Origin: Candidatus Latescibacterota bacterium
Lineage (GTDB): Bacteria; Latescibacterota; UBA2968; GCA-2709665
Direction of reading: 5' to 3'
Assembly (NCBI GenBank): GCA_965248435.1
Contig: OZ252100.1
Span: 5,120,001-5,184,000 of the forward strand
DNA length: 64,000 nucleotides
In this document: positions 34,843 through 59,067 of the stretch, one piece after another
Numbering within the stretch: position 1 is the first letter of the stretch
Layout of the letters: every line of letters starts with the position of its first letter
Position numbers and translations under genes: made by a program
Notes under the pieces: model-generated
Told to the model about the DNA's origin: nothing
The model's database searches: none
Seen by the model: the letters and a program-made list of their open reading frames with translations, nothing else

Positions 34843-34929
34843 GCCGAAGTGGTGGAATTGGTAGACACGCTGTCTTGAGGGGGCAGTGGGGCTTGCCCCG
34901 TCGGGGTTCGAATCCCCGCTTCGGCACCA
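34843..34929 (+). tRNA. tRNA-Leu(GAG)
   Basis: GCCGAAG/CTTCGGC acceptor stem, TGGTAGAC D loop, TTGAGGG anticodon loop, long variable arm, GTTCGAATC, encoded CCA. Confidence 0.96.
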
Positions 34930-35394
34930 ATGATAGTCGCATACATTTAAGGGCACTTACGCGAGCAACAGAAAGAAAAGGCGTGGGTGCCTTTTTTGTT
35001 TCCCAAGATGCCGTCTCCATCATGTCTCCATCGGTAGGAGACGATCATATGCTGTCAGGGTTGGGGGATCTCGACGCCCTGCCAAACGGGATAGGATGTC
35101 CTATACTTGCATTTGCTTGATGATGCGGGAGGGCAACTGAGTGGGATCCTAATAGGAGGAAAGCCAAACAAAAGAAACTTGAGTAGCCAGCAAACTATTT
35201 TTAGACGATCCGCCGTAAAAGGAAGGGGAAAACTGACTAAGGTCACCCCTTCCTTATTTTTTTGCAAGGCCACAACTTTAGTAATGTTTACCGTAGGCAT
35301 CATTAGGACCATGTTTTTCGTTGATCAAGTCCATGAGAAGATCAGTCGCTTTTCTTATGCGGGAATCGATCATCATAACATCGGTCCTTTCTTA

Positions 35395-36906
35395 TCACGT
35401 AGATGTTGAATCGTGCTTCAATCCGCGGAGCAGACTGACTCCCAGGAGCAGCAATATCAGGGCGAAGGGCAGGCCGGTGGTGACGACACCGGTTTGCAAC
35501 GCCTTTAAACCCCCACCCAGCAGGAGCACGGAGGCGACGATCCCTTCCATTGAAGCCCAGAAGATGCGCTGGACCGTGGGCGGGTTGGGATAGCCGCCCG
35601 CCGTGATGATATCCACCACCAGCGAGGCGGAATCGGACGAAGTGACGAAGAAGATCGTGATGGCGACCACGGACAGAGCAGAGGTGATGGCGGCCAACGG
35701 AAATTGGTCGAGCAGCTTAAAGAGCGCTGTAGCGACATTAGCATTCACCGCCTCGACCACTCCCCCTTGCCCCGAAAGCTCCTGGAAGAGCGCCGTGTTG
35801 CCGAAGACGGTCAGCCACACAAAGGTCAGGAGTGTCGGCACCAGCAGGACACCGAGGAGAAACTCGCGGATGGTGCGCCCCTTTGAAATGCGCGCGATAA
35901 AGATGCCGACGAATGGCGCCCAGGCGATCCACCAGGCCCAGTAGAAAATGGTCCATCCGTGCTGCCACTCCGTGCCGCTATAGGCTTCGGTCCACAAACT
36001 CAAACGGGGCAGATTTGTCAAATAAGCACCCATGTTCTGCACCAGGGCGTCCAGCAGGCGCAGCGTAGGTCCGACGATAAATACGAAGGAGAGCAGCAAA
36101 AGGGCGATGATCATGTTGAGTTGGCTGAGCCGCCGGATGCCCTTGTCGAGCCCGAGGACGACCGATATCGTCGCCAGAAGTGTGATTCCCCCGATCAGGA
36201 CGACCTGCTGTGTCGAACCCTGCCCTAATTCAAAGAGGTAGTCGAGGCCGGCGTTTATCTGTTGGGCACCGAGGCCCAGGGATGTAGCCAGACCGAAGAG
36301 CGTGGCCACCGCCGCGAGGATATCGATCAGGTTGCCCAGACTACCATGAATGCGTTCGCCCAGCAGCGGATAGAACACCGAACGGATGGTCAGGGGTAGC
36401 CCGCGGTTAAACGCGAAATAAGCCAACCCCAGGGCCGTCAAACCATAGAGCGCCCAGGCGTGCACGCCCCAGTGGAAGAAGGTGATGGCCATAGAAAGCT
36501 GGGCGGCCTCGGGCGTTCGCGCTTCGCCCCAGGGCGGCGCAATAAAGTGGTGTATGGGCTCGGCGACGCTCCAGAAGACCAGGCCAATGCCCATGCCGGC
36601 GCTGAAAAGCATGGAAAACCAGCCCCAGGTGGTAAATTCGGGCCGCGCATCGGCCCCGCCCAAGCGGATCTCGCCGTAGCGGCTGAAAAGTAGATAGATG
36701 ACAATGCCCAGATAGACGTTGACCGTAGCGACGAAGAGCCAGCCGGCGCTCGATGTGATCGCGGCCTGGACTGCGGTGAAGACCGCGCTCATCTGCTCCA
36801 GGTAGAACAGACTGAAGGCGACGAAAAGGACGATCAAGCTCGTCGAAGTCCAGAATACAGTAGGGTGAATTTCCAGTTTCAGGCGATTGCGTACAGGTTT
36901 ATCCAA
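35395..36906 (-). CDS. BCCT-family betaine/choline/carnitine transporter
   Basis: WFSMLFSAGMGIG, FHWG.HAW, WT.FYWAWWIAWAPFVG.FIARISKGRT. Confidence 0.95.
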   Translation of the reverse strand: MDKPVRNRLKLEIHPTVFWTSTSLIVLFVAFSLFYLEQMSAVFTAVQAAITSSAGWLFVATVNVYLGIVIYLLFSRYGEIRLGGADARPEFTTWGWFSMLFSAGMGIGLVFWSVAEPIHHFIAPPWGEARTPEAAQLSMAITFFHWGVHAWALYGLTALGLAYFAFNRGLPLTIRSVFYPLLGERIHGSLGNLIDILAAVATLFGLATSLGLGAQQINAGLDYLFELGQGSTQQVVLIGGITLLATISVVLGLDKGIRRLSQLNMIIALLLLSFVFIVGPTLRLLDALVQNMGAYLTNLPRLSLWTEAYSGTEWQHGWTIFYWAWWIAWAPFVGIFIARISKGRTIREFLLGVLLVPTLLTFVWLTVFGNTALFQELSGQGGVVEAVNANVATALFKLLDQFPLAAITSALSVVAITIFFVTSSDSASLVVDIITAGGYPNPPTVQRIFWASMEGIVASVLLLGGGLKALQTGVVTTGLPFALILLLLGVSLLRGLKHDSTST

Positions 36907-36934
36907 GACAGGTCTCCGATCGTCCGGGTTAAAT

Positions 36935-37771
36935 TCAAGATTTGACGAAGTGCTGGACGCCCCAGGTCAGGTAGCACCGCTGGCCGCCCTCGATCCAGCG
37001 CGCCAGCCCCACTTTCATGCGATCTATATAGTCATCGCTGACGACCTCTCGCAGATGCCCTTCTTTCTTTTTGGTTTCTTCCAGCACGCGCGTGTAATGG
37101 GTGATCAAATGCGGGGTGAAATCGCGGAATCCTTCGTTGCGCCAGCCAAATTTCCGGGCCTGGTCCAGGTAAAATCCAGGCGAGCCCAGCGTCTCCAGAT
37201 GGATGCGGTCGAGGATGGGTTGCAGCACCCCCTCGGGACAGTCGTCTGCCTGCATGGGATCGGTGAGGATAAACTCTCCACTCTTCTTTAACACGCGGTC
37301 CACTTCTTCGAGCACCTGTTCGCGGTGACCACTGTGCAAGATGGCGTCCTGGGACCAGACGATATCGAAAGTGCCATCCTCACAGGGGATATCTTCGAAA
37401 CTGCCATCGACGACTTCTATGTGGTCGTCCAGCCCCGCCTCGCGGTTCATTTGTCGATGGCGTTCGTTCTCCACTTCACTCAGGTTGAGCGCGGTGACGC
37501 GACACTCGTGATTAGCAGCCAGAAAGCGCGCCGCTCCACCGAATCCAGATCCAAGATCGAGCACCTGTGCAGTGGCACTGAGATTGTCGAGCTTCGCCGC
37601 CAAATGCGCCACAGTGCGGCGGCTGGCGACGGATATAGACTCATCCGAATCGGCATACATGCCAACGTGGATATCCTCGCCTCCCCATATCAAATAGTAG
37701 AAATTATCTGCGTCCTCGCTGTCGTAATACTCTCTGGCTACATCGACGGCCGGTGAATAATCGGTGGTCAT
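36935..37771 (-). CDS. Sarcosine/dimethylglycine N-methyltransferase-like (SDMT family)
   Basis: YYDSEDADNFY..IWGGEDIHVG, LDLGSGFGG, WSQDAILHS, FILTDPMQ. Confidence 0.88.
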   Translation of the reverse strand: MTTDYSPAVDVAREYYDSEDADNFYYLIWGGEDIHVGMYADSDESISVASRRTVAHLAAKLDNLSATAQVLDLGSGFGGAARFLAANHECRVTALNLSEVENERHRQMNREAGLDDHIEVVDGSFEDIPCEDGTFDIVWSQDAILHSGHREQVLEEVDRVLKKSGEFILTDPMQADDCPEGVLQPILDRIHLETLGSPGFYLDQARKFGWRNEGFRDFTPHLITHYTRVLEETKKKEGHLREVVSDDYIDRMKVGLARWIEGGQRCYLTWGVQHFVKS

Positions 37772-38126
37772 CTTCTATCCTCCTCAAGTTTCTTGTCGGT
37801 AGGCTTTCTTGGCAATGCGACTGAAGCGAGCCAACGGCTTTATATCACGCGTTCCTCGATGAACTTCTTGAGATCTTCCCTGGGGTGCTGATGACGAAAG
37901 GGAAGCCGTCAAAAGGGTCTAAGAGGACATTCTGGAGGTAGGAATGGACTCTCCCAGCGAACGAGAAACTGGGAGAATCCACAGGTAGGCTATTATTTGA
38001 TTCCGATTGCGTGGAAATTCAGTATGGCAGGCTCATTGGAGACTCCATCCCCCGTAACGGACACCGAATTGGCCCTATGATAAGTGCATCAACAGAAATT
38101 CACAAATGAAAAGTAAACTCACCCCA

Positions 38127-38238
38127 GTTCGAATCCCCGCTTCGGCACCAGTTAAAAAACAAAGGGTTACGTCAATTGGGCGTAACCCCTTTTTATTGCC
38201 AATTGCGCCACTGCTGCCATTTTGCTACCGTTTGGATC
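38127..38238 (+). repeat. tRNA-Leu 3'-end copy (24 nt) + conserved hairpin/arm tail, unit 1
   Basis: GTTCGAATCCCCGCTTCGGCACCA, then AAGGGTTACGTC..CGTAACCCCTTTTT..TTGCGCCACTGCTGCCATTTTGCTACCGTTTGGATCA. Confidence 0.92.
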
Positions 38239-38256
38239 AATTGAGGGCTTAGGGGC

Positions 38257-38910
38257 ATGACGAAAATACCGCGTGGCGGCTTGGTAAGAACCGACAAGGG
38301 ATTGCGTTGCTGGTGGTGCCTTACGGACCCCCTCTACATTCGTTATCACGACCGTGAGTGGGGCCGACCTGTACGCGACGACACGCGGCTGTTTGAGAAA
38401 ATGTGTCTTGAGGGATTTCAGTCGGGTCTGAGTTGGCTGACGATTCTAAAGAAGCGCGAAAACTTTCGCGAGGCCTTCGATGGGTTTGACATTGAACGGG
38501 TCGCGCGATTCGGGAAACGGGACGTGACTCGACTGTTGAAAAATGCCGGTATTGTGCGTCACCGGGGCAAGATCGAATCGACCATCAACAACGCCAAACG
38601 CGCGCGCGAGTTGGTGGAAGAGGCAGGCTCTTTGGCGGCGTATTTTTGGCGTTTCGAGCCTGAAGCTTCGTCGCGTCCCAAACGGATGACGCTTGCGAAA
38701 ATCATGGCGATGACAAAGTCGCCAGAGTCGATTGCGTTGTCCAAAGATCTAAAAAAGCGTGGCTTTACCTTCGTGGGGCCCACCACGGCGTATGCCTTCA
38801 TGCAGGCGATGGGAATGGTGAATGACCATATTGAAGGGTGCGGAATTCGAGAGGAGGCGATCGCGGCGCGCACGAAGTTTCGTCGCCCGAGTTTCGTTGC
38901 CGACGATTAA
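38257..38910 (+). CDS. tag: DNA-3-methyladenine glycosylase I
   Basis: RCWW..YHD.EWG, LEGFQSGLSW, FVGPTT.YAFMQA.G.VNDH..C. Confidence 0.95.
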   Translation: MTKIPRGGLVRTDKGLRCWWCLTDPLYIRYHDREWGRPVRDDTRLFEKMCLEGFQSGLSWLTILKKRENFREAFDGFDIERVARFGKRDVTRLLKNAGIVRHRGKIESTINNAKRARELVEEAGSLAAYFWRFEPEASSRPKRMTLAKIMAMTKSPESIALSKDLKKRGFTFVGPTTAYAFMQAMGMVNDHIEGCGIREEAIAARTKFRRPSFVADD

Positions 38911-38951
38911 CCTTGTGCATAGAGGATATCCCGGAAAGAAAGGAACCCGAC

Positions 38952-40292
38952 ATGCCAAATCGCAAGACCGCTTTGATGCTGCTTGAGTTAGTTGGTTTGG
39001 CTTTTTTGGCTGTAGTTTGCAGCGATAACAAGACGTACAACGAAGCCGGGCAAAAGGCTTACGAGCAGGGCCACTACGCCGAAGCTGAAAAGCAATTTGT
39101 GGCCGCTCTCGAAGAAGCAGAAAAGGTCGGGCCTCAAGATCCTGGCCTCGCCACAAGCCTGAACAATCTGGCGGGAGTTTACAGAGCCCAGGGCAAGACT
39201 GCAGAGGCCGAGCCGCTATACAAGCGGTCACTGGCGATATTGGAAAAGGCCCTTGGGCCAGACCATCCTGTTGTGGCGGCCTCCTCGAACAATCTGGCGG
39301 GACTTTACAGAGCCCAGGGCAAGACTGCAGAGGCCGAGCCGCTATACAAGCGGTCACTGGCGATATTGGAAAAGGCCCTGGGGCCAGACCATCCTGATGT
39401 GGCGGCCTCCTTGAACAATCTGGCGGGACTTTATAGAGCCCAGGGCAAGTATGCAGAGGCCGAGCCACTATACAAGCGGTCACTGGCAATCAAGGGGAAA
39501 ACGCTTGGGCCAGACCATCCTGATGTGGCGACCTCCTTGAACAATCTGGCGGGACTTTACAGGGCCCAGGGCAAGTATGTTGAGGCCGAGCGACTAAACA
39601 AGCGGTCACTGGCGATATTGGAAAAGGCCCATGGACCAGACCACCCCTCTGTGGCGACCTCTTTGAACAATCTGGCGCTACTTTACAGAGCCCAGGGCAA
39701 GTACGCAGAGGCCGAGCCACTAAACAAGCGGTCACTGGCGATATTGGAAAAGGCCCATGGACCAGACCACCCCTCTGTAGCGACCTCCTTGAACAATCTG
39801 GCGCTGCTTTATCATGACCAGGGCAAGACTGCAGAGGCCGAGCCATTATACAAGCGGTCACTGGCGATATGGGAAAAGACCCTGGGGCCAGACCATCCTG
39901 ATGTGGCTACCTCCTTGATCAATCTGGCGGATTTTTACGGAACCCAGGGCAAGTATGCAGAGGCCGAGCGACTGAACAAGCGGGCACTGGAGATCATGGA
40001 AATGGTCCTGGGGCCAGACCATCCTGATGTGGCGATCTCCTTGAACAATCTGGCGGAACTTTACAGAGCCCGGGGCAAGTACGCAGAGGCCGAGCCACTA
40101 TACAAGCGGTCACTGGCAATACTGGAAAAGACCCTGGGACCAGACCATTCCCATGTGGCCAAAAGCCTGGAGAACTACGCTGCCCTGCTACGGAAAACGC
40201 AACGCAACTTCGAGGCGGAAGAAATGAAGGCTCGCGCAAAGGCGATCCGGGTCGAGCAAGCAATGAGAAACACATCCGTGATAAGTGAATAG
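38952..40292 (+). CDS. TPR protein with near-identical 42-aa kinesin-light-chain-type repeats
   Basis: About 8-9 repeats of GPDHP.VATSLNNLA.LY.AQGKY.EAEPLYKRSL; N-terminal hydrophobic segment. Confidence 0.92.
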   Translation: MPNRKTALMLLELVGLAFLAVVCSDNKTYNEAGQKAYEQGHYAEAEKQFVAALEEAEKVGPQDPGLATSLNNLAGVYRAQGKTAEAEPLYKRSLAILEKALGPDHPVVAASSNNLAGLYRAQGKTAEAEPLYKRSLAILEKALGPDHPDVAASLNNLAGLYRAQGKYAEAEPLYKRSLAIKGKTLGPDHPDVATSLNNLAGLYRAQGKYVEAERLNKRSLAILEKAHGPDHPSVATSLNNLALLYRAQGKYAEAEPLNKRSLAILEKAHGPDHPSVATSLNNLALLYHDQGKTAEAEPLYKRSLAIWEKTLGPDHPDVATSLINLADFYGTQGKYAEAERLNKRALEIMEMVLGPDHPDVAISLNNLAELYRARGKYAEAEPLYKRSLAILEKTLGPDHSHVAKSLENYAALLRKTQRNFEAEEMKARAKAIRVEQAMRNTSVISE

Positions 40293-40316
40293 GATAGGGG
40301 ATCGCTGGATTTGGCT

Positions 40317-40470
40317 TTGAGGGGGCAGTGTGGCACGCCCTGTCGGGGTTCGAATCCCCGCTTCGGCACCAGTTAAAAAACAAAGGGTTACGTCATCAAG
40401 ACGTAACCCCTTTTTATTGCCAATTGCGCCACTGCTGCCATTTTGCTACCGTTTGGATCACTTGATGCGA
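40317..40470 (+). repeat. tRNA-Leu 3' half (anticodon loop to CCA, variant variable arm) + conserved tail, unit 2
   Basis: TTGAGGGGGCAGTG..GTTCGAATCCCCGCTTCGGCACCA; tail nearly identical to unit 1. Confidence 0.92.
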
Positions 40471-40736
40471 ACCCAACTGCTGGGTTTTTCGCCTACAAGG
40501 GGTTTCACGAACCGGTTCGAATAGAATGTTATCGGGGGCGGAGTCTGTGTAGTTCGAAGATATACCCACTTCAGACGAGAACGTTAGTGGCCACCTGCAA
40601 AGGCAATGCTATGAACAGAGATATGGTAGAGCTAGCACAGATCGAGGATTCTTTCCGGGGGAGGTTCGAAGCCACCGTCCGGGATAGAGCGAAGCAAAAA
40701 AACGTGGTGTAACAGCTCATTAAGGAGATATCGCAA

Positions 40737-41621
40737 ATGGTCGACATTCCCTATGTGGTATCCGAGGAAGAAAAGTACTATTTCGACCTCAGAGGCTACC
40801 TGATCATCCGTAACGTGCTTTCTCCGGAAGAAATCGGTGCCTGCAACCACGCCATCGACCAGTTTACCGACCAGATTGTGCCCGGCAACGAAATCGGGGA
40901 ACTCTCCCGGGGCTCAGAGGCTCTGGCCGGCAGCGGCCGGATCGAATTGCGCGGCATGCTCGGCTGGCCCGAACCCCACCGCAGCCCTTTCCGCAACCTA
41001 CTGATCCACCCGGTCGTCGTCTCCCGCCTCAACGAATTCTCCGGCAAGGGTTTCCGCCTGGACCACGGCCCCCTCCTCATCAGCGCCAAAAAAGGCACCG
41101 AAGGCCACTGGCTCCACGGCGGCGGCGAACCCTTCAGCCCGGCCGTCTGGTACCACCAGCAAAACGGCAAAATCTACTGCCGCGGCATCACCGTCGCCTG
41201 GCAGTTGGCCGTCTGCGGTCCCGGCGACGGCGGCTTCTGCATCGTGCCGGGAAGCCACAAACTCAGCGAACCCACGCCGGAGGAAGTCCGTTTCGCAGAA
41301 GATGATATGGACCTCATTGTCCAGCCTGAAATGGATGCCGGCGACGTCCTCTTCTTTGCCGAAACCGCCACTCACGGCGCCCTGCCCTGGAAGGCTGACC
41401 ACGACCGCAGGTCCGTCCTCTACAAATACACCTCCCGGGCCGCGGCCCGGGAGGTGGGCAAGCACTTTACGCCACAAGAGCGTTACGGCGAATGGGTCAA
41501 CGAACTCACCCCCGAACAGCAGGCTGTCCTCTACGGCCCCGGCGTGCACCACGGAGGGCGGCTGCCCCTGCTGGAGTCGGATGGGAAATCAGTGCAGATC
41601 GTGGAAATGGAGACCAAATAA
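40737..41621 (+). CDS. PhyH-family Fe(II)/2OG dioxygenase-like protein
   Basis: YFDLRGYL, GGFCIVPGSHK, GDVLFF.E...HG, RRSVLYKY. Confidence 0.88.
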   Translation: MVDIPYVVSEEEKYYFDLRGYLIIRNVLSPEEIGACNHAIDQFTDQIVPGNEIGELSRGSEALAGSGRIELRGMLGWPEPHRSPFRNLLIHPVVVSRLNEFSGKGFRLDHGPLLISAKKGTEGHWLHGGGEPFSPAVWYHQQNGKIYCRGITVAWQLAVCGPGDGGFCIVPGSHKLSEPTPEEVRFAEDDMDLIVQPEMDAGDVLFFAETATHGALPWKADHDRRSVLYKYTSRAAAREVGKHFTPQERYGEWVNELTPEQQAVLYGPGVHHGGRLPLLESDGKSVQIVEMETK

Positions 41622-42534
41622 TGGACGCCAAAGAACGCTACCTCTGGGATTTGAACGGGCACCTGATTGTCTGCAACGTCCTCAGCGAGGAGGATCTCAA
41701 AGCCGCAAACGATGCCATCGACTTCTGCGCCGACCGCATCGTGCCGGGCGATGAAAACCGCCTTTCCAGAGGCTCCACGTTCTGCAGGGCCTGGGGCGTC
41801 CCGGATTGCAGGGCACCAACCTGCTCGACATCGAAAAACCATACTGCGACATCTTCCGCAAACTGCTCGTCCACCCCGCCGTCATCTCCCGCCTGAAAGT
41901 CATGTGCGGCACAGGCTTCCGTCTCGACCACGGCCCCCAGTTTATCGGCGGTATCAAAGGCACCTCCGGGCACGCCCTCCACGGCTCCGGAGCCCCCCAC
42001 AAACCCTACGTGGCCTATCGCAACCGGAACGGTGAAATGCACTGCGCCGGCGTCACCGTCTCCTGGCAACTGGTCGAAGTGCCTGAAGGCAAAGGCGGGT
42101 TCGCCTGCGTGCCCGGCTCTCACAAATCCGACTTCGACATGCCCGAAGGCGTGCGCACCGTGGACGACGACATGGGCACCTCCATCAACCCCGAAGCCCA
42201 CCCCGGCGACGTTGTCTTCTTTATGGACGGGGCTCAGACCCACGGCACATATCCCTGGGTGAACGACCACGAGCGCCGTTCCATCCTTTACAAATTCGCC
42301 TCCCGTACCGCCGTTCGCTCAGGTGTCTCCGTCCAGATTGCTCCCCCGGAGATCTACTGGGATGAAAACATCGTCGACGGCATGACGCCGGAAGAGCGTG
42401 CTGTCATGTATGGCCCCTGCTCGGGCCACGGAGGCGTCGTCCCCTCCCTCGATGTCACAGAAGACGGCACCGTCATCGTGGAAGGTGGAGACGAGACCAA
42501 AGCACCCCCGACGCCTGATGGACCTCCGCAATGA
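41621..42534 (+). pseudogene. Second PhyH-family paralog with apparent 1-nt frameshift near 41780
   Basis: MDAKERYLWDLNGHL..SRGST switches frame to LQGLGRP..DHGP..PGSHKS..THGT. Confidence 0.8.
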
Positions 42535-42854
42535 CGGTCACAGGGAAGCCACTCGGGCGGGGTAGAGCTATCCTGATTACACAGCCTCCCGCTTAATCCC
42601 TCTCTGTTTCCCCATTTACATAACATCCAGTTCTGACTCAACCTCCTGGCACCCTCTTTGCCTGTCTGTAATGCAAAAGGAGGGTGCCAATGTTTTGCCC
42701 GGAAGAACTACGACGCCAGACTGATTGAAGACTTGGAGCGGGCTTGTGACAATGGTCACTTATTTTGGTAGCATGGTTTTGCATCCTGTCTATATTGAGA
42801 AATCCGGCCTCAGTTCATAAGTGACCCCAACCCTACAGGACGGAGGAACCAGCC

Positions 42855-50521: not shown

Positions 50522-50614
50522 GGTTCGAATCCCCGCTTCGGGACCCATGAAAAAACAAAGGGTTACGTCATTGAGACGTAACCCCTTTTTAGTGCCAATT
50601 GCGCCACTGCTACC
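50522..50614 (+). repeat. Degenerate tRNA-Leu 3'-end copy + conserved tail, unit 3
   Basis: GGTTCGAATCCCCGCTTCGGGACCC..AAAGGGTTACGTCATTGAGACGTAACCCCTTTTT..GCCAATTGCGCCACTGCTACC. Confidence 0.9.
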
Positions 50615-50632
50615 GGCATACCGGAGACCGCG

Positions 50633-51022
50633 CTAACGCGATTCGTCCTCAGTGTCAAAATGGGCCGGCATGGTGATCTCGATGACCTCCCAGTCATCGG
50701 AATACTCCAGTACCTCGTGCTTGACCCCGGGCGGCTGATACCAGGCGTCGCCGGACTCCACACGGATCTCACCGATGTCTTCGAAGTAGAGCTGTGCCCA
50801 GCCCTTGATCATGTAGACCATCTGGAAGTCCAGATCGTGGGAGTGATAGCCAATCGGGCCCTTGCAGGGTTGGTCGGCGCGAATGATGTGCGCCAACACC
50901 TTGCCTCCCGTGGCGTCCCTGATCCCCAGGTCGCGGTAGCCGAAGTAGGGCCGCAGACCGTCCTTGACCCACTGGGCATCCTTTGCGTGCGCCGCAAACG
51001 TTTTGGTCGTTTTCTCGGTCAT
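50633..51022 (-). CDS. Cupin-domain protein
   Basis: GLR..F.YRDLGI..AT.G, H.H..DFQ, GD..YQPP..KH. Confidence 0.88.
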   Translation of the reverse strand: MTEKTTKTFAAHAKDAQWVKDGLRPYFGYRDLGIRDATGGKVLAHIIRADQPCKGPIGYHSHDLDFQMVYMIKGWAQLYFEDIGEIRVESGDAWYQPPGVKHEVLEYSDDWEVIEITMPAHFDTEDESR

Positions 51023-51217
51023 CGTGCTACTCCTATCGCCATCAGATAGTGAACCTGCTATCCACGAGGATTACCCAGCCGGTGTGACGGTGGATTCGGC
51101 CGAAGCTCATCCGAGGCTTTGGTCCGACCCGGAACATGTCTTAACTGTCCGCAATTTAATCAATGATCTCGAAGGTGTCAAAAACTGTCGGTGCCCGGCC
51201 TTCTTGCAGTCATTCAG

Positions 51218-51270
51218 GCGTAACCTTTTTTCTTTGGTAATTGCGCAACTGCACCCATTTTGCTACCGTT
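51218..51270 (+). repeat. Tail-only remnant of the tRNA-att repeat
   Basis: GCGTAACCTTTTT..ATTGCGCAACTGC..CCATTTTGCTACCGTT. Confidence 0.7.
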
Positions 51271-51566
51271 CACAGACGAGCGGAAGAGTCCAGATTGTTG
51301 TCTTTCCCTACCACGAACAGGTTCGGATTAAGACCCTATGGGGTGGATTCTGCGAAGTTCGTGATACACCCCCGCGCCAGACAATATTGTTGGTTCGCTG
51401 ATACCGTAGTTGAACTAAACCGCTTCGCGGTGGCCTGCTGCAAGGCCTTTGCTCTTTGACAACCAGGATATGATACCGTGCAAGTCCGGAGCCACTTTGC
51501 AAATGGCTCTGTGCTTCGCATCCTCCTTCTGCTAACAACGTCCACCATCAGCAGAAGGAGAGAGCC

Positions 51567-52418
51567 ATGACCAAGCATCGGAAGCGAATGATCCGGGACA
51601 TGCAGTTGAAAGGTTTAGATCCGGATACGCAGAAGGCGTACGTGAGCGGAGTGGCCGGGCTGTGTCGTTACTGCAAGACACCGCCCGACCGGCTCAGCGA
51701 AGAAGAGATCCGCGCCTATCTGCACTATCTGATCACTGAGCGGAAGCTGTCCCAAAGCTATGTCAACCAGGTATACAGCGGACTGAAGTTTCTGTTCCAA
51801 ACGACGTTGAAGCGTGACTGGGTCGAGTGGGGCATCCCGCGTGCGAAGAAGGCAAAGAAGCTCCCGGTGGTACTCTCCACAGAGGAAGTGCAGCGGCTGA
51901 TCGACAGGACCAACAACCTGAAACACCGTACGCTGCTGATGGTCATTTACTCTGGTGGGCTCAGACTGAGTGAGGCCATCGGGCTAAAGCTTTCCGATAT
52001 CGACAGTGACCGGATGCTGATCCGTGTGCGGGGCAAAGGCCAAAAAGAGCGAGAGACGCTTCTGGCCCAGGAGGCGTTAAAGGCACTCCGCGTCTACTGG
52101 CGCAGCTACCAGCCTCGCGATTGGCTGTTCCCTGGCGAAAGACCGGATGCACCGCTCCACGCCCGCAGTGTCCAGAAAGTCTTCGAGCAGGCCTGCCGAC
52201 GCGCCGAGATACAAAAGCGTGCGAGTGTCCATTCTCTGCGTCACAGCTTCGCCACACATCTTCTGGACAACGGAGTGGACGTCCGTTTCGTCCAACAACT
52301 GTTGGGTCACACGAGCCTGCGAACCACCACCGTCTACCTCCACGTCACCACTCGCGATCTCACGCGTATCAGAAGCCCCCTGGACCTTTTGGGAGATGAA
52401 GACAAGCCGACCTTGTAG
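51567..52418 (+). CDS. Tyrosine recombinase with N-terminal SAM-like domain
   Basis: YSGGLRLSE, GKG.K.R, HSLRHSFATHLL, LLGH.S..TT..Y.HV. Confidence 0.95.
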   Translation: MTKHRKRMIRDMQLKGLDPDTQKAYVSGVAGLCRYCKTPPDRLSEEEIRAYLHYLITERKLSQSYVNQVYSGLKFLFQTTLKRDWVEWGIPRAKKAKKLPVVLSTEEVQRLIDRTNNLKHRTLLMVIYSGGLRLSEAIGLKLSDIDSDRMLIRVRGKGQKERETLLAQEALKALRVYWRSYQPRDWLFPGERPDAPLHARSVQKVFEQACRRAEIQKRASVHSLRHSFATHLLDNGVDVRFVQQLLGHTSLRTTTVYLHVTTRDLTRIRSPLDLLGDEDKPTL

Positions 52419-52430
52419 CAGAGGTCGGCC

Positions 52431-53615
52431 ATGTCACAGCCTCTCGAAGTCGCCGACATCTTCCGAGTCCACGGAGATGGGTATCAAGCACACTACGGTG
52501 ATCACATGCCGCTTCGGCAGAAGCGGGCCATGCGAGCCATCCAGATCTGCCGAACAGCTGCGCTGGGCGGACACGTGGAAGTGTGCGGGCAGTGCGGAAC
52601 GAAGCGGATCGCCTACAACTCCTGCCGCAACCGGCACTGTACGAAGTGCCAGTTCCTGACGACCGAACGATGGATCGACGCTCGTAAAGAGGATCTCCTT
52701 CCGATCCCATACTTCCACGTCGTCTTCACGTTGCCCGAGCCCCTGCGGCCGCTTGCTCTGCGGAACCAGAAGCTGATCTACAACCTGGTGTTTAAAGCCG
52801 CATCGCAGAGTCTTCTGGAGCTGGCGCGGGAACGGAAGTATCTTGGAGCGCAGATCGGCTTTACCGCCGTGCTTCATACATGGTCTCAGACACTCATCGA
52901 CCACCCGCATCTGCACTGTATCGTAACTGGAGGTGGGCTGACCCACGACGGTCAGGAATGGAAGGCGGCGCGACGGGGCTTCTTTCTACCCGTAAAAGTT
53001 CTGTCCCGACTGTTCCGGGGGAAGTTCCTCGCGTTCCTGAAGGACGCGCACCAGGAAGGCCTTCTGGCGTTTCCGGGATTGAGTGCTCCACTGGAAGATG
53101 CGTTCTTCGATCTGCTTCGGGGTCTTTACCAGAGGGAATGGACCGTTTACGTCAAGCCGACTTTTGCGGGTCCAGAACGCATCGTGGCCTATCTGGGACG
53201 ATACACGCACCGGATCGCCATCTCCAACCACCGGCTGGTCGCCTGTGAGGGCGACCGGGTCTCATTCCACTACCGGGACCGCCAGGCCGGCAACCGACGG
53301 AAGCTGATGACCGTCGATGCCTACGAGTTCATCCGGCGGTTCCTGCTTCACATCCTGCCGGATGGCTTCGTGAAGATCCGGCACTACGGACTGCTCAGCA
53401 ATCGGGGTCGCCGGAAAAAGCTCGCACGATGCCGTAGGCTCCTGGGCACTGTATGCACGACGGCTTCCGCAGCCACAAAGGCGACCTGGCAGGACCTTCT
53501 GTTCCGGGTAACAGGCATCGATCTTCAGGTCTGTGCGCAGTGCGGAGGCCCTATGCTCACAGTCGGAACCCTCGCGCCTCTGCGAGCGCCTCCGGCACAT
53601 GTTGCCGTAGCTTGA
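52431..53615 (+). CDS. IS91-family-like HUH transposase with Zn-binding domain
   Basis: CRTAALGG, SCRNRHC..C, FHVVFTLP, HTW...HPHLH, YLGRY.HR, RHYG.L.N. Confidence 0.93.
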   Translation: MSQPLEVADIFRVHGDGYQAHYGDHMPLRQKRAMRAIQICRTAALGGHVEVCGQCGTKRIAYNSCRNRHCTKCQFLTTERWIDARKEDLLPIPYFHVVFTLPEPLRPLALRNQKLIYNLVFKAASQSLLELARERKYLGAQIGFTAVLHTWSQTLIDHPHLHCIVTGGGLTHDGQEWKAARRGFFLPVKVLSRLFRGKFLAFLKDAHQEGLLAFPGLSAPLEDAFFDLLRGLYQREWTVYVKPTFAGPERIVAYLGRYTHRIAISNHRLVACEGDRVSFHYRDRQAGNRRKLMTVDAYEFIRRFLLHILPDGFVKIRHYGLLSNRGRRKKLARCRRLLGTVCTTASAATKATWQDLLFRVTGIDLQVCAQCGGPMLTVGTLAPLRAPPAHVAVA

Positions 53616-53820
53616 GCTCCTACACCATCCCTTGTCCGCAAGCCCAACCACCCAACACGGCAGTAGTCTGTCCACTCTTTGAGCTTGGTAGAGCGACTAT
53701 GGGATCCTGCGACATCGGCCCCTCCAAACAGCTTCAAATACGGTCCGATGACTGGGCCAGCCCAGCGGTCCTTACACAAGAATCACTCATCCAATCCCCA
53801 TAGGCAGGTGAAGCGGCTTC

Positions 53821-53895
53821 GTTCAACACCGTGTATCCGGAATCCCGCTCCCGTCCACGCTTCTCCGACTCCGGATACACGCTTAATCGTTATAC
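53821..53895 (+). other. attC-like site
   Basis: GTTCAAC (RYYYAAC)...CGTGTATCCGGA / TCCGGATACACG...GTTATAC; 75 bp. Confidence 0.6.
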
Positions 53896-54005
53896 GAAAT
53901 TACCCATCCCTAGATAGACGTGGGGCGCTGCAAAAACAGAACCACTCCTGTACTTTTATACCGCTTCTGTATTTATCTGTAACAGGTCGATAAGGGAGGG
54001 ATATT

Positions 54006-55205
54006 TTGAAAATAACTGCCATCGAGACGATCCGGATCGAAGAGTTCTCCAATATGCTGTGGGTACAGATCCATACGGATGAGGGCTTGGTAGGGCTCGG
54101 TGAGACTTTATACGGACCACAGTCCGTAGAGGGCCATATCCATGGGATCATCGCGCCCTATCTGATCGGTCAAGATCCCCTGTTAATCGATCGCCACACC
54201 AGTCATCTGATCGGCTACGTTGGATTCAACGGATCCAGCGCTGAACAGCGAGGGCGCTCGGCCATCGATATAGCTCTCTGGGACGTGTGGGGACAGGCCA
54301 CGGGCCAACCCATTCATCAGTTGTTGGGTGGGGCCGTACGGGAGGATATTCGCGTTTATAATACCTGCGGTGGCTATGGGTATGCTCGCTTTAAGCCCGT
54401 GTACGATACTTCCGGTTTCGAATTACCCGACACGGGCGCTAAGGGTCCTTACGAGGATCTAGACGCCTTCCTCAACCATGCGGACGAATTAGCGCACAGC
54501 CTGTTGGCCATGGGGATTACGGGAATGAAGATCTGGCCTTTCGATGCAGCCGCAGAGGCCTCGAACGGGGCCTACATCTCCGCAGCCGATCAGGAGCAAG
54601 CATTACTGCCGTTCGCCCAAATTCGAGAAGCCGTTGGCAACTCTATGGACGTCATGTGCGAATTGCATGGATTATGGAATCGCCCTACAGCCAAGACAAT
54701 TGTTGCTGCGTTGGAAGAATTTAATCCGCTCTGGATCGAAGACCCCGTCCAGATGGATCAGCTTGAAAGTCTGGGTGAGGTACAGGCATCGACCCGTGTG
54801 CCCATCGCTACAGGTGAAACGCTGGGGGGCAGAGCCCAATTTAAAGACTTGCTGCAGCGCAATGGGTGCGGGGTGGTGATTATGGACGTCGCTTGGTGCG
54901 GGGGCATCTCGGAAGCACGAAAGATCGGGGCCATGGCCGAAGCCTGGCATGTTCCCGTTGCCTTCCACGACTGCACCGGCCCCGTGGTGCTAGCCGCTTC
55001 GACCCATCTGGCACTTAACGCCAGAAACTGTTTCGTTCAGGAAATCGTGCGGGCCTTCTACTACGATTGGTACAAAGAGGTGGCCACTCATCTGCCGCCG
55101 CTGAAAGAAGGACGCATTTCGGCCCCCGACGGTCCTGGACTGGGGCTCAAACTCATCCCCGACAGATTAAAGACCCGTGACGTACACGTCCGGCGAAGCG
55201 AGTGA
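54006..55205 (+). CDS. Mandelate racemase/galactonate dehydratase-like enolase-superfamily enzyme
   Basis: MKITAIET, HTDEGLVGLGET, DIALWD..G, KIWPFD, WIED, GE.L, HDC.GP. Confidence 0.92.
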   Translation: MKITAIETIRIEEFSNMLWVQIHTDEGLVGLGETLYGPQSVEGHIHGIIAPYLIGQDPLLIDRHTSHLIGYVGFNGSSAEQRGRSAIDIALWDVWGQATGQPIHQLLGGAVREDIRVYNTCGGYGYARFKPVYDTSGFELPDTGAKGPYEDLDAFLNHADELAHSLLAMGITGMKIWPFDAAAEASNGAYISAADQEQALLPFAQIREAVGNSMDVMCELHGLWNRPTAKTIVAALEEFNPLWIEDPVQMDQLESLGEVQASTRVPIATGETLGGRAQFKDLLQRNGCGVVIMDVAWCGGISEARKIGAMAEAWHVPVAFHDCTGPVVLAASTHLALNARNCFVQEIVRAFYYDWYKEVATHLPPLKEGRISAPDGPGLGLKLIPDRLKTRDVHVRRSE

Positions 55206-55354
55206 GCACCAGTGATGGTGCGTGCATTATCACCGCCATGAATGTCAATATTGAGAGAGGCAACCACCCGCCTCCGCGGGACAGCAGCCGTCGGCCATGC
55301 TGACCGTTACACCCAAGCGGCCAGATTGGATAGGGCGCGCGCAGAGAGAATAGG

Positions 55355-56086
55355 ATGAATCACAAAGACGATAAACCTATCGGACTACGATCTTATGAAA
55401 GTTGGGCAGAACGCTATGCCGCGGCTGTAGACTCAAAACCTCCCAATGCACACTGTGAACGCCCTGCTATGCTGTCATTGCTCCCAGAAATCAAGGGAAA
55501 GCATGTGCTCGATGCCGGATGTGGTCCAGGTTGGTATGCTGAGCATTTAGTCTCCAGTGGCGCCAAAGTTACTGCTATTGATGTCACACCAAAGATGGTG
55601 GAAATTACAAAGGAGAGATTGGGCACGTCGGTAGATGTGTACGAGGCAGATCTGAGTAAACCTCTCGACTTTCTGGAGAGTGGATCAGTCGACTGCATCG
55701 TTTGCTCGCTAACGCTACACTACATCGAAGATTGGGCAGATGTCTTTACGGAGATGTACCGCATACTCCGCGAATCAGGCCATTTGGTGTTCTCCACACA
55801 TCATCCCTTCAACCCCTCAGTACTGGAACAAGGCAAGTACTTTGAGACAGAGCTGGTTGAAGATGTATGGGGAAGTTTTGGCAAGCCTAAAGTCAAGGTG
55901 CAGTTTTTTAATCGACCCCTAAGTGAGATGATTCTGCCCTTACATACGGCGGGTTTTCTTGTCGAACAGATTATCGAACCACTCCCTACTGAAGAATGCA
56001 AAGAACGGTATCCGGAGTTTTATAAGAGTGTGTCACAATGTCCTTGGTTTCTTTGTGTCCGAGCAAAAAAGAAATTGAAGGCATGA
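55355..56086 (+). CDS. Class I SAM-dependent methyltransferase
   Basis: VLDAGCGPG, SL.LHYIEDW, LVFSTHHP. Confidence 0.92.
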   Translation: MNHKDDKPIGLRSYESWAERYAAAVDSKPPNAHCERPAMLSLLPEIKGKHVLDAGCGPGWYAEHLVSSGAKVTAIDVTPKMVEITKERLGTSVDVYEADLSKPLDFLESGSVDCIVCSLTLHYIEDWADVFTEMYRILRESGHLVFSTHHPFNPSVLEQGKYFETELVEDVWGSFGKPKVKVQFFNRPLSEMILPLHTAGFLVEQIIEPLPTEECKERYPEFYKSVSQCPWFLCVRAKKKLKA

Positions 56087-56189
56087 GGCTATAGCGCGCG
56101 CACGGCAGCCGGCGCCTGACTGACACCTCGTTTCAGTCTGCGCCCCGCCTGGGGATGAATCTTTCACATCGCTGGGGGAATTCCACGAA

Positions 56190-57122
56190 ATGGATCGAAC
56201 CACGCTTGGCAGAACGGGCCTCGAGGTCAGCGTCGTAGGAATCGGCGCCGGAGGTCCGAGCCGGATCGGCAAGAGAACCGGTAAGACGGACCGGGAGTCG
56301 GCCGACATCGCCCTGAAGGCGTTCGAGGCCGGCGTCAACTTCATCGACACGGCTGAGGGATACGGTACCGAGCCGATCATCCGGCTGGCTCTCGAGGACA
56401 TTCCACGTGACCAGCTGATCATCTCGACCAAGAAAAGCTCGAAGGGTCGAACAGCCGACTCTGTCGTCACAAGCTGCGTAGAGAGCCTGGAGCGGCTCGG
56501 GACCGACTACATCGACGTCTACAGCCTCCACGCCGTCTTCCCCGATGACTACGCGCGATGCTGCGAAGAGCTCTACCCGGAGCTGGTCAAACTGCAGGAA
56601 GCGGGCAAGATCCGCTACATCGGCATCACGGAGACGTTCAACTCGGACAAGGCGCACGACACGCTGAAAGCCGCCCTCGCCGACGACCTGTGGGACGTCG
56701 CCATGGTCGGGTTCAACATCCTGAACCAGACCGCGCGGGACGCTGTTTTCGCGAGGGCGATCGAACAGGACGTCGGGATTCAAGTGATGTTCGCCGTTCG
56801 CACAGCAATGAGCGACCCCGCGTTCCTCGTCGAGGTAGTCGGCGGGCTGATCGAGGCCGGTCAGCTGGATGCGGGCGATCTGGACGACCTCGGCCATCCG
56901 CTCGACTTCCTCGTCCACGAGAGCGGCGCGGTCAGCATTCCCGACGCCGCCTACCGCTTCTGCCGATACGAGCCCGGCACGCACGTCATTCTGTCCGGAA
57001 CCGGCAATCCCGATCACCTGCAGGAAAACATCGCGAGCTTCGAGCGCCCACCGCTTCCTCAGGCCGACGTCGACCGCCTGAAGCACATCTTCCGCAACGT
57101 CGATTCCATCACCGGTCAGTAG
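56190..57122 (+). CDS. Aldo/keto reductase
   Basis: LGRTGLEVS, NFIDTAEGY, ISTK, SL.RLGTDYID, GKIRYIG. Confidence 0.93.
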   Translation: MDRTTLGRTGLEVSVVGIGAGGPSRIGKRTGKTDRESADIALKAFEAGVNFIDTAEGYGTEPIIRLALEDIPRDQLIISTKKSSKGRTADSVVTSCVESLERLGTDYIDVYSLHAVFPDDYARCCEELYPELVKLQEAGKIRYIGITETFNSDKAHDTLKAALADDLWDVAMVGFNILNQTARDAVFARAIEQDVGIQVMFAVRTAMSDPAFLVEVVGGLIEAGQLDAGDLDDLGHPLDFLVHESGAVSIPDAAYRFCRYEPGTHVILSGTGNPDHLQENIASFERPPLPQADVDRLKHIFRNVDSITGQ

Positions 57123-57237
57123 GTGACCGCTCGATTCGACTTCGCGGTCGTGGGGTGTGGCTGCTCTCTGCGCATTTTGTTTTCTGAGGCCACGGCCACT
57201 TCGTCAGCCCGCAGACCGAACGTTACACGCAAGCGGC
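57122..57237 (+). other. Degenerate attC-like palindrome ending CGTTACACGCAAGCGGC (the same ending occurs at 55305-55321)
   Basis: Nested TTCG/CGAA, GCGG/CCGC and GTGGCTG/CGGCCAC pairs directly after the stop codon. Confidence 0.4.
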
Positions 57238-57305
57238 GCAAGAGTTCCCACCACCCCCACTCGGATTAATTGTGCACAGGAAAAATCGGAAAGCAGGCAG
57301 ACCTA

Positions 57306-57905
57306 GTGCGTTTTCATTTTATCCGACACGGTAAGAGAGACCGCAAGATCGGCGATCCTCCATTGACATCAGAGGGTCGAGAAGAGGCAGAACTACTCGC
57401 CAGGAAGTTAGCATCAAACGGCATCGCACGAATTTTCAGCAGTCCGCTGGCACGAACAAGAGAGACAGCGGAGATCATCGCCACCATTTTGAATCTTGAA
57501 GTTACTGAAGATTCACGGCTACGTGAACGAATGAATTGGGGTGACATCGAAGGCCAACCTTTCGACGAGTTCGTAACCGAATGGGAGCGGTGTAGCAGAG
57601 AACGAGACTACCAACCCAGTGTTGGCGATTCAAGCCTTGGCGCTGGTAGACGCATTGAGGCTTTTGTATCCGATCGCTACCTTCAAGCATTCAAAGACAC
57701 TGTGATTGCGGTGACCCATGGCGGCATCCTGGCAGACTTCCTTCTCAACGTTTTCTCATCTGAAGAACTGGGTCGCGTGTGTTCGAAATTTTGTGATGAC
57801 CCATACAGTGGCGAAGTCATGCGTGAGTGCTCGATTACAACCGTTTCGTATGACGGGAACCGGCATGGACTCGACGCTGTTGGGGTCGTCCTATTTGGGG
57901 ATTAA
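57306..57905 (+). CDS. Histidine phosphatase family protein
   Basis: FIRHG, SSPL.RT.ETA, LRE, VTHGG. Confidence 0.92.
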   Translation: MRFHFIRHGKRDRKIGDPPLTSEGREEAELLARKLASNGIARIFSSPLARTRETAEIIATILNLEVTEDSRLRERMNWGDIEGQPFDEFVTEWERCSRERDYQPSVGDSSLGAGRRIEAFVSDRYLQAFKDTVIAVTHGGILADFLLNVFSSEELGRVCSKFCDDPYSGEVMRECSITTVSYDGNRHGLDAVGVVLFGD

Positions 57906-57994
57906 TTCTGAGCAGAAGTCGAATATTCACTACGTTTACGGCGGTCCAGCATATATCAAACTTATCTTGAATGTGATCCCTATCAGGAGTGATC

Positions 57995-58155
57995 ATGGTT
58001 GCCCGTGAAGTGGAGAGAGTTGAAGTCGTTGACTATGACGAATTATGGCCCGCCGCATTCCAGAGAGGACGTGAAGTGCTCATCAATGCGATCGGCGAGT
58101 ACGTGGTTGGCAGCATTCAACACGTCGGCAGTACTTCAGTTCACGGGCCCACTGG
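57995..58155 (+). pseudogene. N-terminal fragment of a GrpB-family nucleotidyltransferase-like gene
   Basis: VEVVDYD..WP..F....L...IQHVGSTSV.G, after which the similarity is lost. Confidence 0.75.
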
Positions 58156-58333
58156 CTTCAGAAAGGTGGAGAGCTGTATAACAAGCCAACGCACTACGAC
58201 TCCAGACGAATTGCCTGTGTTTCATCAACGAATTCATAAACACAGGCTATTTTTGTTGATCGGCGACGGAGGACGAAGCGATCTTTCACGACCACGCAGA
58301 CATAGTCACAGATTAAATCCGTAAGGAGGTCAA

Positions 58334-58846
58334 ATGCCACTCAAATACAAAGAAGGCCAGACGTTTCCATCGATCAGCTTGATCGACGATCGAGGGAACG
58401 AAGTTTCGATTGCAGAGGTGGCGAGCCGACAGCCGCTGATCCTTGCGTTCTACCGCGGGCCCTGGTGACCGAAGTGACAGGTTCAACTGAAGGAACTGGT
58501 CCAGTTCCATACACGAACAGAAGTGGCTTCCTGCCGAATCGCCGTCGTTTCCGTGGATCCCCCAAGGGTTCAGGAAGCTTTCAAAGCGGGTTTGGGTGCT
58601 CGGTTCCCCTTTCTGAGTGACGAGAATCTGACGCTCACCGACGAGCTCGGCATCCGCGAGTCGACGGATACGCGTCACGGTCCGCTGCCCGTGCCCTTTA
58701 CGTTCGCGCTGCTGCCCGATCTGACCATTCATCGAATTTTCAACGGTTGGTACTTTGTCGGCAGACCCACGCCGGATGAGCTGAGGATCACGATTCGGGA
58801 AATGATGGCCAGGGCCGTGAAGGACCTCGACTTCAGGGGAGAGTAA
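58334..58846 (+). CDS. AhpC/TSA-like redoxin with two in-frame TGA codons (W-U-P-K-U), probable UxxU selenoprotein
   Basis: RBS AAGGAGGT; LILAFYRGPW-TGA(58466)-PK-TGA(58475)-QVQL, in frame with ORF 58523..58846 (VSVD, FPFLSD). Confidence 0.85.
58492..58508 (+). promoter_or_regulatory. Putative SECIS hairpin GGAACTG-GTC-CAGTTCC
   Basis: Perfect 7-bp stem 14 nt after the second TGA; GGTC apex as in the other two. Confidence 0.7.
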
Positions 58847-58968
58847 GACGGCGATTTGGCCCTGAATGAAGTCACACGCGCCAATTTTCTTTCTGCCTGT
58901 AACGAAAAAGGAGGGGCCAGGGGCAGTTCTGACGATAAGATTGTTCATAGCCCCCACTAGCCTCTACC

Positions 58969-59067
58969 GGGCAGTGGGGCGCGCCCCGTCGGGGTTCGAA
59001 TCCCCGCTTCGGCACCCATGAAAAAACGAAGGGTTACGTCATCAAGACGTAACCCCATTTTTGTGCC
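58969..59067 (+). repeat. tRNA-Leu 3' half + conserved hairpin, unit 4
   Basis: GGGCAGTGGGGCGCGCCCCGTCGGGGTTCGAATCCCCGCTTCGGCACC..AAGGGTTACGTCATCAAGACGTAACCCC. Confidence 0.92.

Follow-up and report, generated by a model that had tools for sequence, protein, structure and literature searches.

An array of gene blocks bounded by partial tRNA-Leu copies, without a cognate integrase, in a Candidatus Latescibacterota genome

Arrays of the kind considered here have already been described as the tycheposon islands of Prochlorococcus, the ssrA islands of Dehalococcoides and the accretion of cis-mobilizable elements (CIMEs) in streptococci; each of the three sources is cited for selected passages. 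The hallmark genes of tycheposon islands include tyrosine recombinases, and their successive integrations are separated by partial tRNAs and degenerate remnants (bioRxiv 10.1101/2020.12.28.424599). The ssrA islands lie in tandem arrays in which repeats of the tmRNA end mark the boundaries, and 15 Dehalococcoides islands without an integration module are proposed to be cis-mobilizable elements (PMC3146451). Streptococcal CIMEs have kept attL and attR while losing their integration and transfer genes, and in streptococcal tandem arrays the new element integrates into the att site of the resident one (review PMC5704250). Here we describe a locus in 64,000 nucleotides (nt) of Candidatus Latescibacterota DNA (the window; positions 5,120,001-5,184,000 of contig OZ252100.1, assembly GCA_965248435.1; coordinates below are window positions unless stated otherwise), in which an intact tRNA-Leu(GAG) gene is followed by a series of partial copies of its 3' end, each with a copy of a hairpin and some with a tail of paired repeats, that bound blocks of cargo genes. 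We favor, with modest confidence, reading it as a tandem accretion array of small tyrosine-integrase-type islands at tRNA-Leu(GAG).

On the passages cited, the locus shares with tycheposon islands the integration at a tRNA, the flanking partial tRNAs, the older elements pushed inward and the adaptive cargo. It differs from them in lacking the hallmark integrase and replication genes (Pfam, NCBIfam and PHROGs scans of the island open reading frames, ORFs), in having a terminator and an 11-bp paired-repeat arm, which those passages do not mention, and in belonging to another lineage with a 5.7-Mb genome rich in insertion sequences (IS). The contrast that the original prediction drew with tycheposons, a tyrosine-recombinase-style end, falls away, as those islands list tyrosine recombinases as a hallmark. 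The likeness to the ssrA islands, within the same limits, lies in multiple tandem islands delimited by direct repeats that stem from the 3' end of a tRNA-like gene; there the target is the tmRNA, the enzyme a serine recombinase and the repeat a constant 20 bp, whereas here the repeat measures 24-55 nt and the arm layout suggests the tyrosine type. As in CIMEs, att sites stand on both sides and there is neither an integrase nor a transfer gene, but no integrative and conjugative or integrative and mobilizable element lies adjacent, the units are much smaller than the streptococcal ones described, and conjugative ancestry is no part of the likeness. SCCmec and pseudo-SCC elements (staphylococcal cassette chromosome) at rlmH in staphylococci are tandem cassettes without a recombinase that sit at one att site between direct repeats and can be moved by the recombinase of another cassette. 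The array resembles them in its recombinase-less tandem units at one att site bounded by direct repeats; it is unlike them in that their recombinases are serine enzymes (Ccr), their target is a protein gene, and no tRNA or terminator is copied. Integrons, too, have ordered small gene units, remnants of recombination sites between them and a single anchor. The array, which had been called integron-like, has no adjacent integrase and no attI or attC-type site, its units contain several genes each, and its genes lie on both strands; the term does not suit it. With the defining genes and sites of both absent, the array belongs to neither the integron nor the tycheposon family.

Partial tRNA copies, terminator and array extent

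The tRNA-Leu(GAG) gene is the sole tRNA in the window according to ARAGORN, with which Rfam agrees, and the Rfam scan of the window returned no family besides it. The genes pgk, tpiA and secG stand upstream, and the order TIM-SecG-tRNA-Leu is kept in relatives. A repeat finder and direct reading both place four partial copies of the tRNA 3' end downstream on the same strand, each with a hairpin, as the original prediction had it (junctions J1, J2, J4 and J6; the intact gene is J0; Table 1). The copies of J2 and J6 begin in the anticodon loop or stem, that of J2 in the loop, and those of J1 and J4 begin in the T-loop. The anticodon loop or stem and the T-loop are the classical crossover sublocations of tyrosine integrases. 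The tail contains two 7-mers, TGCTGCC and TGCTACC, 11 nt apart, as well as TGCCA; it is complete after the copies of J1 and J2 and partial, to 50614, after that of J4, which bears out the earlier count of three tail-bearing units, and the two tail-only remnants also reported are present at 47639 (J3) and 51209 (J5). The tails of J1 and J2 are 95% identical over 118 nt, while the cargo of the two units is unrelated. After its hairpin, J6 continues with sequence like that downstream of the native tRNA in another genus of the order (genome G004). The variable-arm loops read CTTG in the intact tRNA, CACG in J2 and GCGC in J6, differences that fit an origin of the units from different donor copies, as had been proposed. 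Every junction has unique flanks and its own repeat length and sequence. When the 161-nt unit of J2 was compared with the whole genome (5.67 Mb), seven of the nine matches fell in this locus and the other two were the 3' ends of two other tRNA-Leu genes; the clustering means that the repeat pattern is not due to chance.

A GGGTTACGTC...GACGTAACCC stem-loop with a T-run stands behind all four tRNA copies, and the hairpins of J1, J2 and J4 were rated terminator-like by a consensus scan that covered 34500-54000. The intact tRNA carries another, diverged hairpin downstream (~34951-34991), in agreement with the original prediction. For comparison we used 52 other genomes of the same order, of which those named in the text are labeled G001 (same genus), G002, G004, G006, G038, G043-G045 and G052. 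The same stem-loop is found behind the intact tRNA-Leu(GAG) in G001, G004, G002 and G006; a stem-loop with a T-run follows this tRNA in all 23 relatives read, and the stem sequence covaries between families. A query made of hairpin and tail matched 25 of the 52 genomes, nearly always over the hairpin alone; the match extended into the tail only in G044 and G045, and the native tRNA site of G001 is free of the tail. By this pattern of conservation, the hairpin is to be regarded as the native terminator of the tRNA, not as the element-specific att hairpin it had been taken for. Each unit would then hold copies of both the tRNA end and its terminator, both of which an element requires if its integration is to leave a functional tRNA gene.

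The native arrangement also delimits the array. In G001 the tRNA and terminator are followed within 170 nt by a flank gene whose homologue here lies at 64736-65815, outside the window, and synteny puts the ancestral flank at ~64589. A degenerate native terminator at that point (J7), ~110 nt before the flank gene, is followed by a downstream run, CCCTTTTTGTTTCT, identical to that of G001; the short matches of J7 are not significant alone, and its position carries the assignment. Synteny and J7 therefore delimit an island of 29.7 kb (~34930-64588), in which the tRNA is followed by seven junctions and seven blocks (0.6-7.7 kb each); this reaches beyond the end at 59067 first assigned to it. The site in G001 is empty, with no island between the tRNA with its terminator and the flank gene, and in the 12-20 kb retrieved from each of the 23 relatives the 15-mer at the tRNA 3' end never recurs. 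The tRNA-Leu(GAG) site is thus normally empty, in keeping with the proposal of serial integration at the tRNA. An intact tRNA at one end, same-strand 3' repeats bounding the segments and an empty site in close relatives give the locus the make-up of an accretion array.

Block A is of foreign origin by its DNA identity: 35471-37813 (2343 nt) shares 92% identity with a contig of G043, from another family of the order, against 79% identity to G001 and 64-69% to other genera for the TIM-SecG DNA beside the tRNA. The genes of block A stand in a different context in G043, with no tRNA nearby. Foreign origin is resolved for block A alone among the blocks. The cupin gene of block D1 has 92% identical DNA in G004.

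Paired-repeat arms and recombinases

Of the 47 tRNAs of the genome, 5 have exact 7-mer repeats with an 11-nt period in the 110 nt downstream, compared with 13 of 5000 random windows (0.26%); periods of 8-10 and 12-15 nt occur at 0-1 of the 47. The GCTAAC repeat type is common to tRNA-Pro(cgg), tRNA-Gly(ccc) and a tRNA-Pro(tgg) fragment, and the GTCTCCA type to tRNA-Leu(gag) and a tRNA-Val fragment. Since repeat types are common to different tRNAs, the arm belongs to the mobile partner and not to the tRNA. The combination of terminator and paired repeats lies near one tyrosine integrase family at three other tRNAs, at distances from 55 nt to 2 kb. These are tRNA-Ala(ggc) of this genome (392-aa integrase 2 kb away; GTGACGA/GTGACAA with 1 mismatch, read by eye and below the exact-match test), tRNA-Pro of G038 (~1 kb; TGCCA twice, read by eye) and tRNA-Val of G052 (~55 nt; GTGTTGCCA twice, exact). 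The integrase genes of the family encode 390-460 amino acids (aa) and are 32-45% identical over the aligned parts; the single member that was scanned has Phage_integrase and Phage_int_SAM_5 domains. The arm-type sites of lambda-like integrases are tandem repeats one helical turn apart beside the core. By analogy, the 11-bp paired repeats are putative arm-type sites, presumed to bind an integrase; this likeness, already suspected in the original prediction, gains support from the 11-nt enrichment after tRNAs and from the three neighboring integrases.

Partial copies lie downstream of seven of the 47 tRNAs, with units of 1.2-25.7 kb, a count from which two of nine rows were dropped: Ser-cga, matching a neighboring tRNA-Ser gene, and Pro-ggg, matching the island fragment of Pro-cgg. 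The other six tRNAs are Pro(cgg) at 140582, Gly(ccc) at 198111, Glu(ttc) at 1132953, Pro(tgg) at 2594819, Val(tac) at 2872694 and Thr(tgt) at 4624031 (genome coordinates, contig C1). A single FG-GAP gene makes up the 3.1-kb unit between tRNA-Gly(ccc) and its fragment. Among the seven loci only Thr(tgt) has an intact adjacent integrase, and Pro(cgg) has an integrase fragment; units without an integrase are thus the rule in this genome. Behind the tRNA-Thr unit lie a second core and a broken integrase.

The tail types recur in G044 and G045, genomes of another family, with no integrase nearby, and the loci of G004 and G045 with tail-like repeats after tRNA-Leu have no integrase within 12-15 kb. 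The search recommended at the outset, for tail copies adjoining an integrase, returned none in this genome with the repeat types of this array. In public reference genomes the tail pattern gave five matches, a chance level, one of them in a metagenome-assembled genome like G044. The four matches in metagenome contigs had neither a tRNA nor a hairpin, and one was an iteron-like array by a KfrA-type gene. Viral contigs gave one match to the tail pattern and 70 to the GCTAAC repeat pattern, about the chance expectation; three of these 71 loci had a tRNA, none in the right arrangement. The J2 unit had no match in phage and plasmid records.

The reads were available as Logan contigs of four runs, all from one metagenome sample. 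Run X1 contains a joint from 34890 to 40374 with 39 other letters between, in which a different tRNA-Leu, with other variable and T arms, is followed by a spacer and hairpin of the J1/J2 type. Seen in one run only and with a 35-nt side, it is taken as the locus of another organism, possibly a further host or donor of arms of the tail type.

A six-frame search of the genome found 16 tyrosine-recombinase domains (PF00589) and three resolvase domains (PF00239). In the island, the six frames hold a single PF00589 match, in the gene at 51567-52418, and no PF00239. The absence of any integrase had been claimed earlier; a recombinase gene does lie inside the array, and the claim stands for a cognate integrase, as this gene belongs to an IS91-family element (51408-53892). 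The element has a Y2 transposase and defined ends and is a multicopy unit, with six genome copies that are 97-100% identical; its boundaries are sharp in five of the six, and the other five copies are free of the tail or a tRNA piece. Considered as the integrase of the island, the recombinase is ruled out by the IS boundaries and the six copies; it scores 191 bits against an integron-integrase cut-off of 265. The IS91-family element is a later insertion. Immediately to the left of all six copies stands a member of a ~100-nt sequence family that starts TTCACGAAC (here 51310-51406), and the element looks like a target-specific insertion beside it. The same position beside all six copies rules out the ~100-nt piece after the tail as an arm of the island. 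The IS bodies are nearly identical, yet this flank differs strongly from copy to copy. Members of the family lie near 4651188, 3849755, 4844415, 1449640, 2072951, 4625421, 4954228 and 5351225 (genome coordinates, C1), and two of the solo copies stand behind integrase genes of the tRNA-Thr island. The IS30-family IS of block E has 30 further near-full-length copies in the genome.

Origin of the array

On the reading we favor, small integrative elements would have entered the 3' part of tRNA-Leu(GAG) serially by site-specific recombination. The incoming attP would have had three pieces: copies of the tRNA 3' part and of the terminator, and a short arm with two 7-8-mers 11 bp apart. Each integration would remake the tRNA from the copy of the element and displace the older copy inward, the result being J1-J7 and seven blocks over ~29.7 kb. 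The integrase modules may have been deleted or never carried, leaving units that are now non-autonomous, like CIMEs. Deletions removing the tRNA part at J3, J5 and J7, and one IS91-family and one IS30-family insertion, would be later overlays. Several observations weigh against this reading. Those three junctions without a tRNA part call for further deletions. A six-frame search of the island (E≤0.1) found neither an integrase of the expected kind nor a fragment of one, and therefore the case for integrase-mediated insertion is an indirect one. No integrase stands beside the repeat types of this array anywhere in the genome, and tRNA-Thr(tgt), the sole locus with an intact integrase, lacks the terminator-plus-repeat arm. 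Part of block E could be rearranged chromosome rather than island: at least 46 of the 52 other genomes in the order have DNA matching its 397-aa gene, which is absent from G001. Finally, on the left the cargo ends 5-25 nt before junctions J2-J4 and J6 (~355 nt before J1), and on the right the Tag gene begins 20 nt past the tail of J1 and the leucine-rich-repeat gene 4 nt past that of J3. If integrases were lost, the deletions were remarkably clean, which favors units that never carried one and argues that this holds for at least some of them.

The clean junctions on both sides of the cargo thus keep in play, as the main alternative, an account that goes back to the original prediction and that we entertain tentatively, in which none of the units ever had an integrase and all are minimal cassettes of 1-7 genes plus a 120-160-nt attP, moved in trans by a rarer helper. 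The tRNA would then serve as a cassette-capture platform with a logic comparable to that of SCC/pseudo-SCC arrays or integrons, a view we hold just as tentatively. The near-identical arms of J1 and J2 around unrelated cargo speak for cassettes, as do the genome-wide recurrence of the layout with units as tiny as that at tRNA-Gly(ccc), the six of seven tRNA-linked repeat loci that have no intact integrase, and the tail types of G044 and G045. A helper integrase with matching repeats is, however, absent from this genome, the public, metagenome and viral matches of the tail pattern stay at chance level, and phage and plasmid records match nothing. No excised, circular or block-to-block joint is present among the joints listed for the four runs, whose contigs drop rare forms. 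The decay of ordinary islands is also the commoner documented route, as far as the cited passages of the review go (PMC5704250). The most far-reaching form of the idea, a lineage-wide, integrase-free system of mini-circles with 1-7 genes and a ~120-160-nt attP, stacked by rare helpers and shared across families, seems to us slightly less probable again.

That the array was produced in assembly, from strain variants with one or two blocks each that were joined at the shared repeat, is improbable. The genome is metagenome-derived (completeness 97.5%, contamination 7.0%), most junctions lie beyond a check against reads, J1-J3 being outside the contig pieces listed, and the short-read contigs of the one sample break at repeats. 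Depth in run X3 is ~13 for block A and 4-7 for block C1, with no such difference in X1, and depths of this kind are unfit for ranking the parts. Against a misjoin, the two contigs of the genome (5.66 Mb and 17 kb) imply long-range data, run contigs reproduce the block sequences without differences, an X3 contig (48205-50692) spans J4 without differences, another run contig (34901-35898) leads from inside the tRNA into block A, and every junction combines unique flanks with a differing repeat, no alternative block joint being listed. Two further explanations strike us as very unlikely. The tRNA-end units might have been spread by rolling-circle read-through of the IS91-family element or by segmental duplication of the tRNA 3' flank. 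IS91 targets the tetranucleotides GTTC or CTTG, and the tRNA copies begin beside one of these; the IS91-family element lies 114 nt past the tail of J5, and DUF1016 genes lie just upstream of two other IS copies. Set against this are the sharp boundaries of five of the six IS copies, the freedom of the other five from tail or tRNA pieces, and the one IS copy to seven junctions; duplication is countered by blocks that are mutually unrelated and by the tail-free native site of G001. The other explanation, as improbable as the last, is that a host or IS-borne Xer-like recombinase acts on the terminator hairpin (10-bp inverted arms, 5-6-nt spacer) in the manner of dif-exploiting elements. The hairpin is shaped like a simple core site for a tyrosine recombinase, J3, J5 and J7 start in or after it instead of in the tRNA, and the genome has six copies of the Xer/IntI-like recombinase. 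The covarying stem behind the same tRNA in all 23 relatives read fits a terminator instead, the loops differ between copies (AATTGG, ATCAA, ATTGA), contrary to a shared overlap region, and the four best junctions start inside the tRNA.

Cargo and significance

The cargo that Pfam, NCBIfam and PHROGs show in the seven blocks is metabolic and adaptive only (Table 1). Replication, transfer and phage structural genes were not found among the island ORFs with Pfam, NCBIfam and PHROGs, as the original prediction had stated for replication and transfer. Genes lie on both strands, with block A, block D1 and parts of D2 and E on the minus strand, and many of the NCBIfam cargo matches are below the equivalog cut-offs.

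Table 1. Features of the tRNA-Leu(GAG) array (window positions)
Feature	Position	Strand	Description	Basis
tRNA-Leu(GAG), J0	34843-34929	+	Intact; anchor, attL side	ARAGORN; Rfam RF00005, 50.7 bits
tRNA-proximal arm of block A	34951-35031	+	Diverged hairpin ~34951-34991; GTCTCCAT twice with 11-nt period, 35013-35031	
J1	38127-38256	+	tRNA 3' end, 24 nt (38127-38150); hairpin 38164-38188; paired repeat TGCTGCC/TGCTACC 38212-38229	
J2	40317-40477	+	tRNA 3' part, 55 nt (40317-40371); hairpin 40385-40409; full tail; paired repeat 40433-40450	
J3	47639-47704	+	Tail alone; no tRNA part, no hairpin	
J4	50522-50614	+	tRNA 3' end, 29 nt (50522-50550); hairpin 50560-50584; first half of tail	
J5	51209-51294	+	Right half of hairpin, tail; no tRNA part	
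J6	58969-59080	+	tRNA 3' part, 53 nt (58969-59021); hairpin 59031-59055	
J7	~64589-64625 (outside window)		Degenerate native terminator; no tRNA part	
Block A	35395-36906	-	BCCT betaine-type transporter	Pfam; NCBIfam equivalog match below cut-off
Block A	36935-37771	-	Sarcosine/dimethylglycine N-methyltransferase-like gene	Pfam; NCBIfam equivalog match below cut-off
Block B (2.2-kb unit)	38257-38910	+	DNA-3-methyladenine glycosylase I (Tag)	Pfam; NCBIfam TIGR00624 above cut-off
Block B	38838-40292	+	Tetratricopeptide-repeat (TPR) protein, 126-nt tandem repeats	Pfam; repeat finder
Solo copy of ~100-nt IS-flank family	40501-40599	+		nhmmer profile search, E 3.4e-15
Block C1	40737-47629	+	Two PhyH-type dioxygenases, cupin, two family-less proteins (512 and 314 aa)	Pfam
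Block C1	46613-47629	+	DUF1016/nuclease-domain protein; stop codon 6 nt before J3	Pfam; PHROGs endonuclease
Block C2	47708-50506	+	Leucine-rich-repeat protein, creatininase-family protein, enolase-superfamily enzyme	Pfam; NCBIfam, all below equivalog cut-offs
Block D1	50633-51022	-	Small cupin protein	Pfam
IS91-family IS	51408-53892	+		Pfam; NCBIfam; boundaries from flank comparison
Recombinase of IS91-family element	51567-52418	+	Xer/IntI-like tyrosine recombinase	Pfam
Transposase of IS91-family element	52431-53615	+	Y2 (HUH) transposase	PF04986, PF14319; NF033538, 449.6 bits against cut-off 125
Block D2	54006-58957	mixed	Enolase-superfamily dehydratase, methyltransferase, aldo-keto reductase, histidine phosphatase, GrpB fragment	Pfam; NCBIfam
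Block D2	within 54006-58957	-	214-aa protein without a family	Pfam/NCBIfam scans
Block E	59081-64000, on to ~64588 outside window	mixed	Short MscS_porin-like ORF (-), 397-aa protein (+), SDR (-), IS30-family IS (61985-63060)	Pfam; NCBIfam
Block E	63169-64357	-	Extra paralogue of a flank gene	

Several features of the blocks and their surroundings may be added. The enolase-superfamily dehydratase gene (53989-55269) is 95% identical to a gene elsewhere in G001, compared with 79% for the flanking housekeeping DNA. A fragment of the 3' end of the DUF1016/nuclease gene lies at 64460-64548, outside the window and right before J7, and paralogues with 70-72% amino acid identity lie at 3848648-3849670 and 1449827-1450828 (genome coordinates, C1), ~190 nt upstream of IS91-family copies. 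A 63-nt direct repeat (44626-44688 and 45757-45819, 94% identical) brackets the 314-aa family-less ORF of block C1. The sequences at 63169-64357 and 67755-68957, with 86% identical DNA, are paralogues of the gene next after the flank gene in G001. Upstream of the tRNA, the long tpiA reading frame opens with ~130 nt (33503-33634) from a short repeat family with further copies at 10761-10849 and 17478-17561 and at 4622183, 1535205 and 3617953 of C1, and the region 22000-25000, with 42-46% guanine plus cytosine (G+C) against a background of 55-63%, may be another acquired region. The second contig of the genome (C2, 17156 bases) carries a tRNA-Asn and has nothing in common with the chromosome by megablast.

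As it stands, the locus is an ordinary accretion array minus its enzymes. It offers a clean and well-delimited case of how blocks added one at a time at a tRNA would build up a flexible island, and it comes from a lineage whose mobile elements have received little description. The arm layout, a terminator followed by paired repeats one helical turn apart, provides a simple signature by which such elements can be mapped and paired with integrases. If the units were mobilized in trans, the array would represent a naturally occurring platform for cassettes, separate from integrons and SCC elements; and if the integrase-free cassette system extended across the lineage, tRNA genes would be open gene-capture platforms shared between the families of the order.

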